Shown here: positions 16,810-42,648 of the stretch, in pieces | Layout: each line of letters starts with the position of its first letter | How positions within the stretch are numbered: the stretch's first letter is position 1 | Origin: a phage | Strand: one strand, 5' to 3' | Sequence record: PZ452611.1 | DNA: 64,000 nt | Translations under genes and position numbers: made by a program | Notes under the pieces: generated by a model | Databases searched by the model: none | Told to the model about the DNA's origin: nothing | The model's input: the letters and a program-made list of their open reading frames with translations, nothing else

Positions 16810-18291
16810 TTACTTAGCGTACTCAATTAATTCCACAGTTTTCCCAAAGCTCGGGATATAATTTTTATTATACCCCTCGGTGAGAACCCATAAAGTATCG
16901 TACTTTTTCCACTTGTTGTCAACAGCCTTTTGTTCAAAGTTATGCTCAAAGTATAGGTCTGTCAATACGATGACATCTTTTGCATTCGGTATGTTGGCAT
17001 CCAGATACTCGAACACGCAAGCAGCTGTTGTGCCCCATGTTGAGTGGACCTCATAGTTGATCATCTCATCTATGTTACCGCGAGTGTATACTTTAACCTC
17101 TCCAACCTCAGTTGACCAACAGAACATTGTAACCTTAAACTCTTTATACAGATTGCACAATCCGGTGATTTCATTGAACATTTTCTTTAAAGTTCTTTGA
17201 GAGATCGAGCCAGAAACGTCTAAAGCTACCACAATATCTATGGTGTTTTCCGGATTACGACCAGGAACAATAACGTGCTGGTTCTTGTTTATAGCCCCAA
17301 CTTTTCGCATTGTGCTGGTCAAAGACCCAGATCGGCGACCAGGTTTTCTGTAGGTCAGTTCAGCCTTTCGTTTAGACAACATGCGTTGCTTGATGATGTC
17401 TATATAATTGATTACAGGCTTACCTTTATTCTTGACAAACTCACGAACCGCCTCAGGGCAACGGCCTCCGGAAGCTTGCATTGCTGCCTCCAGCATGTCA
17501 CCAGAGTCCTGCATGGCCTGATCTTTATCAGATTGACTGATTACAGGTTGTGGCTGATCATACCCCATAGCCTTTCCAAGATCATCACTGGTGCCACCGT
17601 TACCACTCATGTGATCATCGGTTTGTCGCTTATCTCCTTGAGAGTTCTCACCTTTACCGCTCTTACTTTTACCGTTATTCTGATCTCTTTGCTTATCAAG
17701 AACTGCATAGACGTTCTCAGCAATCCATCCATGAAACTTCATGTCGCAGTAGCAGCTGGCTAAGAATCCAAAAGGCTTACCTTTCACGAACGTAGTGCTT
17801 TTCCCCTTCGGGAAGAAAACACAAGGGGGCTTGCTAAAGTCAACCACAAGACCTGTGTTGATAACGTGATCACAAGCAATATTGAACAGTTCCGGCTCAA
17901 AGCTTTTACCACGGACCAGGTGATCACAGATAATATGTCCCACCTCATGTGACAGAAGGAAGGCCACCTCTTTCACAGATTTTGGGGAATAGAAAACTTC
18001 AGCCATCTCAAACTGCTCGTCAGTTAGAGAAGCCTTAAGAATAGCCTTGCGTTCATCAGCCAATCCCATAATGAACTCAGGACTGTAATAAATGCGTTTA
18101 TGGTCGGTTGCCATGGTGGAGCACCATGTGTGGTTTTCTACGAACTGCAACCCTGACAGTAGTGTGCCATAAAACGGCAGCTTTTCAAGGAGATACATAC
18201 GTGCAGCCTGCAACATTCTCAGGGCATCATCTTTCTGTGAGGCAATAATTTCTGAACTTCTGCTATCCATTAAAACTCCAGAAGGGGCCAT
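16810..18291 (-). CDS. vWA-domain protein with N-terminal HExxH metallopeptidase-like domain
   Basis: 493-aa ORF; HEVGHIICDH (HExxH zinc-binding motif) in N-terminal half; C-terminal VVALDVSGSIS (DxSxS MIDAS motif of von Willebrand A domains). Confidence 0.6.
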   Translation of the reverse strand: MAPSGVLMDSRSSEIIASQKDDALRMLQAARMYLLEKLPFYGTLLSGLQFVENHTWCSTMATDHKRIYYSPEFIMGLADERKAILKASLTDEQFEMAEVFYSPKSVKEVAFLLSHEVGHIICDHLVRGKSFEPELFNIACDHVINTGLVVDFSKPPCVFFPKGKSTTFVKGKPFGFLASCYCDMKFHGWIAENVYAVLDKQRDQNNGKSKSGKGENSQGDKRQTDDHMSGNGGTSDDLGKAMGYDQPQPVISQSDKDQAMQDSGDMLEAAMQASGGRCPEAVREFVKNKGKPVINYIDIIKQRMLSKRKAELTYRKPGRRSGSLTSTMRKVGAINKNQHVIVPGRNPENTIDIVVALDVSGSISQRTLKKMFNEITGLCNLYKEFKVTMFCWSTEVGEVKVYTRGNIDEMINYEVHSTWGTTAACVFEYLDANIPNAKDVIVLTDLYFEHNFEQKAVDNKWKKYDTLWVLTEGYNKNYIPSFGKTVELIEYAK

Positions 18292-18303: not shown

Positions 18304-19347
18304 TTATTTAACGTGTTTGAAAATACCTGCCAACTCGGTCATTGTCATGCGGGTGGTCTTCATAAGATCTGTCATAGCTTTCTCCATAATTGGAGATACT
18401 ACCATAAAGTTTCCTTTAGTGAAACCTTTATTCCAGTCGGTCACCAACAGTGGTTTAAGTCCAGCTCCGAGACGTTCACCAGTTAAAGCACAGCATTTGC
18501 GAATATACGAACTCTTAAATTGGCTGAACGACAGATCAACTTTCATACCTGCATCGTAGAACGTTTGACAATAGAAAGTGTAAGCCTTAGCAATCTCAAC
18601 ATCATCAGGCAGTGCAGGAACCTCTTCTGCAATCTCCTCTTCAACCTCCTGAGGCTCTTTTTCTTCTTCAGAGGTCTGTTCTTCAATTTCTTCTGTCACA
18701 GTCTCGTTTACGATGTCTGAAATGTGTTTGTTGGCTGCACGATCAGCCATGAAATTTTTAAAATCCTGCATCGGTGACATATCTTCTTCCTCTTCGTCAA
18801 ATAGTGCTAGTTTATCTTCTTCTGTCCCGTATTGCAAGATGAAATCTTCAAAAGTATAATCACCTTTCAATTTCTCCATACGCTCTTCGCTCAGGTGGAG
18901 CATCATCTGCTGGACAATTTTTCGATCAGTTTTGTCTTTAATCAGGATTGCAGTCTTTTTATCTACCAGACAGTCTTTCAGAGCATTGCACCTCAACCCT
19001 ACCACACAACAATTGTCAATTGCGTAAGGACCTTCATCATCTATACGCTCCAAAGATGGGTAGAAAGGATTTCCCAGTCCGTTCTCATCTGTGTGCATGT
19101 CGAAAGGTATAAGGGTGTAGTCGCATACCCCCTCCCCTAAAAGTTTTTTACCAAATAGGAGGTATTCTTCCCACGACAGGTCGAACTCTATATCTCGTTT
19201 CCGTGCGTTATTCTGTTTGCGTCTATATTTTTTGAGCAAGCGCTCTAACTCTTCTGGTGTATAATATTTTTCAAGATTCATGAGTTGTCTCTCGTGCTCT
19301 GTAAGTGAAGAAATCGTATCAATTGTCTCAACAGATGTCAACATCAA
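18304..19347 (-). CDS. HNH_3-like (His-Me finger) homing-endonuclease-like protein with acidic linker
   Basis: 347-aa ORF; SLERIDDEGPYAIDNCCVVGLRCNALK resembles the xRIDxxGxYxxxNxxxxxxxxN core of HNH_3 proteins, and shares RIDD-G-Y-DN with ORF 41963-42586; central poly-Glu stretch; start codon uncertain (TTG/ATG at 19347/19344). Confidence 0.45.
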   Translation of the reverse strand: MMLTSVETIDTISSLTEHERQLMNLEKYYTPEELERLLKKYRRKQNNARKRDIEFDLSWEEYLLFGKKLLGEGVCDYTLIPFDMHTDENGLGNPFYPSLERIDDEGPYAIDNCCVVGLRCNALKDCLVDKKTAILIKDKTDRKIVQQMMLHLSEERMEKLKGDYTFEDFILQYGTEEDKLALFDEEEEDMSPMQDFKNFMADRAANKHISDIVNETVTEEIEEQTSEEEKEPQEVEEEIAEEVPALPDDVEIAKAYTFYCQTFYDAGMKVDLSFSQFKSSYIRKCCALTGERLGAGLKPLLVTDWNKGFTKGNFMVVSPIMEKAMTDLMKTTRMTMTELAGIFKHVK

Positions 19348-40354: not shown

Positions 40355-40720
40355 ATGGAACAAATGAACGATCAAGCGTCGGTTGCGATGAACGAGCAAG
40401 AACAACCTCAAGAATTTTTCTTAGGGTTAAGTAAAGATCAAGTGTCTCTTCTGCTAGTGCTTTCTTCTTTCATGGGAAGACTTCAGGAGCTCACACAACA
40501 GCCAGAGGCTGAACAATTATTCCAAGCTTTGCGTGAAGAAGAAAAATATCGTCGTTTGGACTATGCCTTAGGTTGGGTAGCTCAACAACGGGATATGCTG
40601 ATGGCCCTCTCTGGGACCACAAGTTTTGCAATGGGCCTGTTGGCTCAAGTTCAGGACAAATTAATTCAAGCAGGGTTCGCACACACGGCAAGCACTAACG
40701 AAGAACAAGGAGACAAATAA
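40355..40720 (+). CDS. hypothetical protein
   Basis: 121-aa ORF, RBS ggaga. Confidence 0.45.
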   Translation: MEQMNDQASVAMNEQEQPQEFFLGLSKDQVSLLLVLSSFMGRLQELTQQPEAEQLFQALREEEKYRRLDYALGWVAQQRDMLMALSGTTSFAMGLLAQVQDKLIQAGFAHTASTNEEQGDK

Positions 40721-41991
40721 TGAGCGTTATTCAACAATTCGCTAACCCAATGAATCCGCGTGAAACTGTTTTACTGGCTCACGGCATGATTAAACGTGTT
40801 AGCATCAAGCCTATCAAAGGTGCTGATCCTACAACAGGTATTAAAACCACTGTGTGGCAAGGTAAGAAAATTGAATCCAGCCACACCATCTCTTTACTGA
40901 TTTCTGAACTGGATTCCTCTGATAACCTGCTTCAAGGTGGTGAAGAGGTCTGGATCAGCATGGGTGATAAGCTGCTTAAACCAGGTCATCAAGACTCTGT
41001 CTCTGTTAAGATTGATGACAAGTGGGAAACCGTAACGCCAGGATGGATCGTAAATATCCCTTTGAAGGCAAACGAGCATAACGGTAAGACCTATTACAAA
41101 GGCTCACTGGCTAAGATGGTTAAGCTGGGCGCAGGAGAGGCTCCAGCAGCGACTCAGCAGCAAAAACAGCAACAAGGTGCACAATCACAAGGCCAGAAGC
41201 AGAAACCTCAGCAGAATGCCAATCAGGACGTTTTACGCATCTATGGCGATGTGACTCAGATTGTTGGCAACGTGGTTACTGTTAATGACCACAAGATTGG
41301 CGAAGGTGCCATGGTTGTCACTGATGAGCAGCTTAAAGACCTGGTGGTAGGTGGTCGTGTTGCAGCCATTGTTGACAAAGACACTGGAAACATTATCAGT
41401 GGTTTCAAAGCCTATCCACCTAAGGCAGAGAACGGCACTCAAGGCTCTGGTGGCAAGCGTAAATCCTCTTACGACCCTATCGGTGTGGAAACGGGGCATA
41501 GCATCAATGCGTTGCAAATCATCCTGGATCGCGGGTTTAAGGTAGACGACCCACTAGGAGTGGCTAAAACACTGCACGTAGTCACCATTGAGCTTAAGAA
41601 AGAGTATGCTCAAGCCACCAACCGAACTGAAGATGAAGTAGGTGCCAGTGTCGGTAATGCGGTGTTGAACGCTTGTCGCCGTATTGACAAGAAAACGAAA
41701 GTTGATGATTTTGCAGCGGCAATTACTGCAGAAGCAAAAGATGTCTTGACTAATCTGGCTGAGCCGTTGTACGATTGGATCAAGAACGGTGCTGGGTCAA
41801 CCGACCATCAAGAACCTCAGGCTGCCAAACAGGAAGCAGCTCCACAGCAAAACACTGTAGACGCTCCTCCTGTAAATGATGAGGAAGATGACCCGATGGA
41901 TCAGAATCCGGCGCAGTATGACTTCTGTGATGACATACCTTTCGCTCCGGTAGGTTTGCAATATGGCAAAAGTAGAATCCACGCATTGTAA
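40720..41991 (+). CDS. putative DNA-binding protein (possibly SSB-like)
   Basis: 423-aa ORF; Gln-rich linker ([20 protein letters not shown]) and near-C-terminal acidic D-F-C-D-D-I-P-F resembling the DDDIPF tip of bacterial SSBs; lies in replication module; assignment tentative. Confidence 0.4.
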
Positions 41992-42586
41992 GAGGTGCAT
42001 CAAGTGCGGGGAGGTGAAAGACCTCTCCGAGTTCTACAAACACCAAAAGATGTCTGACGGTCATCTTAATAAGTGCAAAGAGTGTTGCAAGAAGGCCAGT
42101 AGGGAGGCTGACCAATTTTCCTACGACTCTTCAGAAAAAGGTGTAATACGCGTGCTGTACAAGGCTCAAAAGTGCAACAGCAAGCAAAGAGGTCACCCGC
42201 CTCCGACTTACACCAAAAAAGAGTTTAAGGAGTGGCTATACCTAAACGGTTACAAAGAGTTGTATGATCAATGGGTAGCCAGCGGATACGACAAAAGGAA
42301 AAAGCCTTCTTGTGATAGGATAGATGATTTCAAAGGGTACTCTTTTGATAATATCCGTTTAACTACCTGGGGAGAAAATAAAGACAAGCAGACGGAGGAT
42401 ATTCTGTTGCATAGAAGCACCAGCGGTAGACGGTGTAAAAATGTAAGGAGACTGGACATGAATGGCAACGTTCTTAAAGAATGGGTATCCCACAATTCTT
42501 GTAGAAGAGAAACCGGAATATGTGTTGATTACTACATTCATGAAAAAATTCCAGCTCCCGATGGATACCTCTATGAATACTTTTAG
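41963..42586 (+). CDS. HNH_3-like homing-endonuclease-like protein with N-terminal Cys cluster
   Basis: 207-aa ORF; N-terminal CKRCIKC...CKECC zinc-binding-like cluster; [25 protein letters not shown] matches HNH_3-type core and the motif in ORF 18304-19347. Confidence 0.5.
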
Positions 42587-42601
42587 CACCTAACTGACAT
42601 A

Positions 42602-42629
42602 GCCCTGCCCGAAAGGGTGGGGCATTTTT
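42602..42629 (+). terminator. putative intrinsic terminator (repeated element, copy 2)
   Basis: same GCCCTGCCCGAAAGGGTGGGGC core as 31552-31578, followed by ATTTTTG. Confidence 0.55.
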
Positions 42630-42648
42630 GTATAAGGAGATCTGAAAA

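Follow-up and report, generated by a model that had tools for sequence, protein, structure and literature searches.

Predicted PacI-type His-Me finger proteins of Escherichia phage rV5: a putative free-standing homing endonuclease gene and a homologue of T4 Srd

Background

In the classification of His-Me finger nucleases the restriction enzyme PacI belongs to group 20, which consists mostly of giant-virus proteins (PMC5714182). That classification describes PacI as the type member of the group, an enzyme without the catalytic His, for which a Tyr of the omega loop between the two strands substitutes; in the crystal structure of PacI one Asp and one Asn hold a single metal, with the Tyr positioned as general base (PMC4081073). 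PacI works as a homodimer. Another described protein that bears on the present case is Srd of phage T4, which, according to papers citing Qi et al. 2015, was reported to bind RNase E at its catalytic N-terminal half and to speed up the decay of host mRNA; in these secondary accounts, binding and stimulation of RNase E are shown for T4 alone. The PacI-type His-Me finger fold, free-standing homing endonucleases with a NUMOD-type tail and the Srd-like family are all already known. Here we examine two genes, ORF A and ORF B, in a 64,000-nucleotide stretch of phage DNA (sequence record PZ452611.1, hereafter the window), in a region that is 100% identical to Escherichia phage rV5 (DQ832317 / NC_011041, Vequintavirus).

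ORF A was first called at 18304-19347 on the minus strand, with the core motif PSLERIDDEGPYAIDNCCVVGLRCNALKD, and ORF B, at 41963-42586 on the plus strand, is the second carrier of the motif (E/D)-R-I-D-D...G-x-Y...N...N-x-x-K. An earlier note, made from the letters of the window, had taken both for homing-endonuclease-like genes, possibly degenerate, in which Arg has replaced the usual His. The reading that we favour, and consider probable, is that both proteins are PacI-type His-Me fingers, that ORF B is a free-standing homing endonuclease gene, and that ORF A is a vertically inherited homologue of T4 Srd consisting of one domain with a complete site and one dead copy.

Results and discussion

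Homology of the two proteins

Both ORFs and both motifs are present as the earlier note had described them. When the two copies were aligned with each other by BLASTP, the alignment was restricted to the motif stretch (PSLERIDDEGPYAIDN on the ORF A side), with 9 of 16 residues identical and an E-value of 0.004. Profiles gave a similar answer. A hidden Markov model (HMM) of the ORF B-family core, run against the 724 stop-to-stop ORFs of at least 40 amino acids in the window, had ORF A as its sole non-self match (E=5.4e-4; next 0.72), and the core HMM of the ORF A family returned ORF B from the same set (E=4.8e-4; next 1.7). A regular-expression search for the motif found no third carrier among these 724 ORFs. 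The two proteins also match PHROGs 1035 and 3322 over the same segment, and comparison of the two family alignments by hhalign gave E=1.7e-4 over 131 columns, at a probability of just 49%. Taken together, the reciprocal HMM matches, the PHROGs in common and the profile-profile match argue that the likeness of the two motifs goes beyond chance and reflects homology.

An active site of the PacI type

The structures of both proteins were predicted, and each family was aligned (58 sequences for ORF B, alignment A1, and 14 for ORF A, alignment A2). The ORF B model has a mean pLDDT of 93, with strands at residues 115-119 and 131-135 and a helix at 136-149; the ORF A model has a mean of 72, with values of 85-96 in the N-terminal domain and disorder at residues 164-223. 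PacI is the top structural match for both models, followed in both lists by Hpy99I, I-HmuI, McrA, Gme HNH and Cas9 HNH, and the BFVD structural matches of ORF A include phage 'anti-sigma factor' proteins as well as giant-virus HNH proteins. In a search of PDB sequences the ORF B-family profile had its best match in I-HmuI (1u3e, E=1.3e-4), in an alignment spanning the core and the C-terminal domain, and also matched residues 91-117 of PacI, VDRSDSFEGYSPQNARLACFICNRIKS; the ORF A-family profile found nothing meaningful among PDB sequences.

The residues that correspond to the PacI site are the acidic metal-ligand position (D92 in PacI, D118 in ORF B, E78 in ORF A), the Arg in place of His (R93, R119, R79), the omega-loop Tyr (Y100, Y126, Y86), the Asn four residues after it (N104, N130, N90), the Asn of the helix (N113, N139, N99) and a Lys (K116, K142, K102). 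Y100 is the sole Tyr in the omega loop of PacI, and it is with this residue that Y126 and Y86 align. Both proteins fall into the His-Me finger superfamily by their beta-beta-alpha-metal fold, in which an acidic residue and an Asn of the helix are placed as metal ligands, and both combine the absence of His with a conserved omega-loop Tyr, as expected of the PacI type.

That Arg occupies the usual His position, as the earlier note had seen, is borne out by the ORF B-family profile, which puts D-R on D74-H75 of I-HmuI and N139 on N96. The note's further step, from this replacement to degeneration, is not supported: across both families D/E, R, Y, N and N show little or no variation and correspond to the active-site residues of PacI, an active nuclease. 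R119, Y126 and N139 do not vary in the 58-sequence alignment, and an exhaustive search for ORF B relatives yielded the full core motif in 134 of 149 representatives, with D, R and Y unchanged in all 134. On the other side, E78, R79, Y86, N90 and N99 are invariant in ten Srd-like proteins, T4 Srd included, down to 21% identity. Since the Arg is invariant alongside D/E, Y, N and N, it is best read as part of a conserved alternative active site in both cores and not as a sign of decay. In a site of this type the Arg would stand at the His position, at the end of strand 1, the Tyr of the inter-strand loop would serve as general base or nucleophile, and one metal ion would be bound by the acidic residue preceding the Arg and by the Asn of the helix.

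ORF B as a putative homing endonuclease gene

In ORF B a CxxC...CxxC ribbon at the N-terminus and a helical segment precede the PacI-type core, which is followed by a C-terminal module. The N-terminal Cys cluster that the earlier note had remarked on is real, C12, C15, C38 and C41 being kept in 90% or more of the family, and the ribbon region gives a weak alignment with the N-terminal ribbon of PacI. Homologues of ORF B pass the Pfam thresholds for PF22083 and PF07453, the pair of NUMOD1 and I-HmuI_NUMOD-like models, in the C-terminal module. At E<=1e-30 the family comprises 1,894 representative clusters, and homologues are found in Vibrio, N4-like, Ralstonia, Cellulophaga and other phages, where they adjoin RNA polymerase, terminase and primase genes. 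ORF B therefore has what one would expect of a homing endonuclease: a nuclease with a modular DNA-binding domain and a patchy spread over unrelated genomes.

A homing endonuclease gene should also be present or absent at one precise site among close relatives, and this too is observed. ORF B occurs in 52 of the 117 phage records that contain the locus, which spans 1,861 bp in genomes without the gene and 2,501 bp in rV5. The difference extends to members of one species, as SYGMH1, which has ORF B, and FV3, which lacks it, are both classified in the species Vequintavirus FV3. We compared the junctions in nine genomes (four without ORF B, three with the rV5-type cassette and two with a second type of cassette). 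In all four genomes without ORF B the upstream gene ends in ...QY(A/T)FDDDIPF-TAA, followed by CATCTAGTTAACATAGCCC, and in FFH2 and FV3 the empty site lies around GATGATGACATACCGTTTTAACATCTAGTTAAC. The three genomes with the rV5-type cassette have ...FCDDIPF with loss of the stop codon, whereas the two with the second type, which has a different ribbon and encodes 192 amino acids, have ...EFDDSIPF-TGA and keep the stop. In two of the five carriers, MiataMamis and bov10K2, the stop of ORF B is the very TAA that ends the upstream gene in the empty genomes; rV5 has TAG there. Relative to FFH2 there are 7 mismatches in the 18 bp of 41910-41927 and 6 in 42580-42596, whereas the rest of the upstream gene has 0-3 per 100 bp, but three windows of the far downstream flank have 4-7 mismatches per 100 bp, which makes the clustering at the junctions supportive rather than decisive.

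On these sequence comparisons ORF B is a predicted free-standing homing endonuclease gene. In a mixed infection it would cleave the allele without the gene, close to where the SSB-like gene upstream has its 3' end, and then be copied into the cut allele by recombinational repair, and carrier genomes would be protected by the substitutions in the last codons of the SSB-like gene.

The GenBank annotation of ORF B and the label of PHROG 1035 would instead make it a Holliday-junction resolvase of the T4 endonuclease VII type, and there is a general likeness, in that a zinc-binding N-terminus is followed by a beta-beta-alpha-Me core. We hold this to be extremely improbable, since ORF B has no Pfam Endonuclease_7 match, lacks the catalytic His, carries a NUMOD-type tail and is missing from more than half of the close relatives, a dispensability that one would not expect of an essential resolvase. 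With no resolvase fold match either, T4 endonuclease VII was rejected as an identification for ORF B.

Several observations concern the surroundings of the cassette. The upstream gene (rV5 ORF214, 40720-41991, plus strand) has no family annotation and ends in an acidic tip like that of E. coli SSB, especially at 41910-41991; sequence comparison gave no confirmation that it is an SSB. In rV5-type genomes removal of its stop by the insertion adds 16 residues after the IPF tip, an extension that could mask a motif normally requiring a free C-terminus. No promoter of its own stands out for ORF B (region 42584-42633), which is probably co-transcribed with the SSB-like gene. The two versions of ORF B in rV5-like phages, of 207 and 192 amino acids (41963-42100 compared with L010:956-1060), are about 96% identical in DNA from nucleotides 106-111 on, while their zinc-ribbon N-termini and left junctions differ. 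Since the N-termini differ and the remainder is about 96% identical, the ORF B gene is mosaic.

ORF A: start, inheritance and domains

The frame of ORF A as first called begins at a TTG (19347) just upstream of the promoter, and positions 19282-19347 are noncoding, made up of the promoter and the 5' leader. Since the frame from the TTG runs through the promoter, the ATG at 19281 is preceded by a ribosome-binding site, GAGAGA (19288-19293), at a spacing of six bases, and diverged homologues start at the same point, the true start is the ATG at 19281; residues are numbered here from this Met, which gives 325 amino acids. A promoter is annotated at the equivalent position in PVP-SE1. ORF A is labelled 'anti-sigma factor; Srd-like protein' in GenBank and 'HNH endonuclease' in RefSeq.

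ORF A is found in 117 of the 120 rV5-like records. Other Vequintavirinae genera have homologues too, and beyond this subfamily Vibrio and Aeromonas phages yield more distant matches, at 25-40% identity. Its homologue in PVP-SE1 (about 50% identity) has the same divergent promoter and the same position, with the gp012 homologue downstream of it and the MoxR ATPase cluster lying opposite. Because presence is near-universal and synteny is kept, ORF A is judged to be vertically inherited and marks no insertion. The earlier note's proposal of free-standing homing-endonuclease-like genes at sites of past insertion is supported for ORF B, with its architecture, its precise 640-bp presence/absence and its scattered homologues, but not for ORF A, a core gene with kept synteny and an early-type promoter of its own. 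A mobile homing endonuclease was rejected as an identity for ORF A, as it shows neither presence/absence variation nor patchiness.

The protein consists of an N-terminal PacI-type domain, a linker and a C-terminal domain that is a degenerate duplicate of the first. The poly-Glu linker mentioned in the earlier note corresponds to a genuine acidic, low-confidence segment. In the predicted model the order helix-helix-beta-beta-helix is identical in both domains, and hhalign matched the N- and C-domain profiles with a probability of 94% and E=1e-7 on a diverse alignment (A4) widened with Seunavirus, Aeromonas-phage, Vibrio-phage and T4 sequences; on the 14-sequence alignment the same comparison gave E=0.23 and the wrong register. 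The C-terminal 100 residues of ORF A also match residues 30-80 of T4 Srd, that is, its N-terminal domain (BLASTP E=0.001), and a search of PHROGs with the C-domain alone returned only its own PHROG. The active-site positions of E, R, Y and N are occupied by L, V, F and E in the C-terminal copy, where Asp282 and Asn291 alone are kept; Asn291 is near-invariant, and the Tyr position is free to vary (F, V, I) in the wider family. Judged by these residues, the C-terminal copy is predicted to be incapable of catalysis. It is the sole degenerate HNH-like unit of the two proteins, and the earlier note had overlooked it.

This dead copy bears on the explanation that the earlier note had put forward, namely that both genes are degenerate homing endonucleases which lost their His and are now purely sequence-specific DNA binders or regulators. 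Such conversions do exist among His-Me fingers, the Smad MH1 domain being an example (PMC5714182), the canonical His is indeed absent, no Pfam HNH match is found, and the C-terminal domain of ORF A is truly dead. One can see in this domain, however, what a decayed unit looks like, with the active-site positions changed save Asp282 and Asn291, and the live cores are unlike it: D/E, R, Y, N and N remain (near-)invariant down to about 21-36% identity and coincide with those of active PacI. Moreover, ORF B was gained or lost recently within one phage species, a pattern that needs an endonuclease that is active or was so until very recently. We therefore regard purely DNA-binding remnants as improbable, and return to two PacI-type proteins, one of them mobile.

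The relationship of ORF A to T4 Srd

ORF A matches PHROG 3118 (E=2.7e-111) and, more weakly, PHROG 1400 (Srd, E=3.2e-9) and PHROG 4592; T4 Srd in return matches PHROG 3118 (E=1.5e-16). BLASTP aligns ORF A with T4 Srd at E=4e-7, so that sequence homology with Srd is present. T4 Srd carries the full E-R...Y...N...N set of the PacI-type site, LSLERFDNNVGYIKGNVIAVKKKYN (L003:4040-4786, minus strand), although no relevant Pfam/NCBIfam family was found for it. In a search of a protein collection the N-terminal 152 amino acids of ORF A alone gave 3 matches, and the full-length query was needed.

From its homology to Srd and its early-type expression, ORF A would serve host takeover as T4 Srd does. 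The invariance of its active-site residues suggests that the protein still needs to bind a phosphodiester or metal, and perhaps to cleave. Because PacI acts as a homodimer, we propose that the two domains of ORF A may form an intramolecular, single-chain pseudo-dimer with one live site.

One may also consider that ORF A is itself an active nuclease, which for example cuts or nicks host DNA or RNA early, and not an activator of RNase E, the 'Srd/anti-sigma' label being uninformative. The complete and invariant N-terminal site, the early-type promoter, a near-identical homologue that an NCBI record calls a 'type II restriction endonuclease' and the strong divergence from T4 Srd outside the nuclease-like domain would all agree with this. 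Yet T4 Srd has the same invariant residues and its reported effect goes via RNase E, the Asp metal ligand is replaced by Glu, and nuclease activity is reported for no member of the family; an indiscriminate nuclease would, in addition, endanger the phage's own genome, for which no protection mechanism is known here. On balance we think such an activity unlikely, and prefer to see in ORF A a Srd homologue acting in host takeover.

A broader proposal, which we offer tentatively and ourselves find doubtful, is that the whole Srd family, T4 Srd included, consists of catalytically competent, Tyr-dependent PacI-type metal nucleases. The effect on mRNA decay would then depend on this site, whether for direct cleavage of nucleic acid or for keeping a phosphodiester in place for RNase E. 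The rV5 protein, a pseudo-dimer within one chain with one site live and the other dead, would be the monomeric equivalent of the PacI homodimer. If true, this would reopen the question of how Srd 'stimulates' RNase E.

Points against the proposed assignments

Several findings weigh against the assignments favoured here. Neither ORF A nor ORF B has an HNH-type Pfam/NCBIfam match at E<=1, and no Endonuclease_7 or NUMOD model of these collections matches them. Pfam HNH_3 (PF13392), to which the earlier note had likened the cores, likewise gives no profile match, and its general-base His is missing, with Arg119 of ORF B and Arg79 of ORF A at the position of His75 in I-HmuI. The earlier note had made an HNH-family profile match a check on its proposal, which formally fails on this point for Pfam and NCBIfam, but the fold, PHROG and PDB-profile evidence places both proteins in the His-Me finger superfamily. 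The resemblance to PacI is also incomplete, as the acidic position is Glu in ORF A and T4 Srd but Asp in PacI and ORF B, and the first two also lack the Cys4 zinc sites of PacI. PacI has two such structural sites; ORF B keeps the N-terminal ribbon only, and the cysteines of ORF A are scattered (C53, C91, C92, C98), with one retained in T4 Srd. We found no report in the literature of nuclease activity for any member of the ORF A or ORF B phage families, and the lactococcal-phage genes reported to reduce plaquing do not include the only PacI-like one that was tested (PMC12724721). The junction substitutions could be part of the imported cassette and not immunity changes. Finally, the likeness to T4 Srd is limited to the N-terminal half of ORF A and the charge of the linker is opposite, so that a function of ORF A through RNase E would be an extrapolation.

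Table 1. Coordinates of the features of ORF A, ORF B and their surroundings in the window
Feature	Position	Strand	Remarks
ORF A, true coding sequence	18304..19281	-	325 amino acids + stop; rV5 ORF11/gp011, Srd-like
ORF A promoter, sigma-70-type	19313..19341	-	TTGACA (19341-19336)-N17-TACGAT (19318-19313); annotated P11 in DQ832317
ORF A N-terminal PacI-type beta-beta-alpha-Me domain	18952..19260	-	residues 8-110; putative active site E78, R79, Y86, N90, N99, K102
ORF A core motif P75-D103	18973-19059	-	within N-terminal domain
ORF A acidic linker	18613..18792	-	residues 164-223; pLDDT <50; indels, low conservation in A2 and A4, variable length
ORF A C-terminal domain	18307..18612	-	residues 224-325; degenerate duplicate
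Left junction, candidate recognition site	41910..41943	+	last codons of upstream SSB-like gene; substitutions co-segregate with ORF B, consistently in the nine genomes compared
Inserted cassette, 640 bp	41944..42583	+	relative to genomes without ORF B (alignment with FFH2); between the upstream gene's last sense codon and original stop codon
ORF B	41963..42586	+	207 amino acids + stop; rV5 ORF213, annotated 'endonuclease VII'
ORF B zinc ribbon CxxC...CxxC	41987..42088	+	residues 9-42; C12, C15, C38, C41; C38/C41 invariant
ORF B beta-beta-alpha-Me core	42305..42409	+	residues 115-149; D118, R119, Y126, N130, N139, K142
ORF B NUMOD-like DNA-binding module (predicted)	42425..42583	+	homologues above Pfam thresholds; I-HmuI C-terminal alignment
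Intrinsic terminator	42602-42623	+	common to upstream gene and ORF B; also given as 42602..42633; directly follows upstream gene in genomes without ORF B

Neighbouring gene and database records

The gene next to ORF A, rV5 gp012 (16810-18291, minus strand), is called 'HNH endonuclease' in RefSeq and PHROG 1314. Its Pfam matches are to the DUF2201_N metallopeptidase (E=2.8e-28) and the DUF2201 VWA-like domain (E=3.6e-11), with a MoxR ATPase gene nearby, and the label is probably a propagated misannotation. In addition, 16 GenBank MG0656xx records of 'Campylobacter phage', with Campylobacter jejuni given as host, are 96-98% identical to rV5-like coliphages at both loci, which suggests mislabelled hosts or contamination.

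Annotation and significance

The rV5 labels 'anti-sigma factor', 'HNH endonuclease' and 'endonuclease VII' cover what appear to be PacI-type His-Me finger proteins, the last of them being unsupported, and automatic labels on relatives include 'HNH endonuclease', 'type II restriction endonuclease' and 'pacI'. Pfam has no model for this nuclease core without the name-giving His, which in the ORF B architecture alone extends over about 1,900 representative clusters, and profile-based censuses of HNH proteins will miss it. Narrow literature searches found no paper linking T4 Srd to a PacI-type active site, and none on the live-plus-dead tandem in the rV5-type protein or on defined empty and occupied alleles of ORF B; these points may be new. 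ORF B and its empty site, which is defined and lies where the SSB-like gene ends, form a tractable allele pair for the chemistry of a Tyr-dependent homing endonuclease, and ORF A reveals in T4 Srd an intact nuclease-type site that is open to point-mutant tests.

Comparison with known systems

The free-standing, variably present HNH genes of lactococcal Skunavirus, which are PacI-like by HHpred (PMC12724721), resemble ORF B in these respects and differ in host, phage group and insertion site. The N-terminal half of ORF A has a homologue in T4 Srd, with the residues E-R...Y...N...N alike, and both genes lie amid genes without a predicted structural (virion) role, that of ORF A having an early-type promoter. 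The two proteins differ in that identity is 21-24%, no full second domain is recognisable in Srd, and the central region of Srd is basic whereas the linker of ORF A is acidic.

PacI (PDB 3ldy/3m7k) has the core V-D92-R93-S-D-S-F-E-G-Y100-S-P-Q-N104...C-N113-R-I-K116, to be compared with ...ENKDK in ORF B and SLERIDDEGPYAIDN...CNALK in ORF A. A replaced His and a Tyr in the omega loop are common to all of them, and the N-terminal CxxC...CxxC ribbon is common to PacI and ORF B. PacI is, however, a homodimeric bacterial restriction enzyme of 142 amino acids that carries two Cys4 zinc sites and has a target of 8 bp, whereas ORF B has the N-terminal ribbon alone plus a helical insert and a NUMOD-like tail, and ORF A has no complete zinc site, Glu for Asp92 and a second, dead domain copy in the same chain. 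I-HmuI, an HNH_3-type phage homing endonuclease, shares with ORF B the beta-beta-alpha core (D74, N96), the C-terminal NUMOD-like DNA-binding domain and the predicted life-style, but has the canonical general-base His75 where ORF B has Arg119; it is intron-encoded and nicks one strand, in contrast to the free-standing ORF B with its zinc ribbon at the N-terminus.

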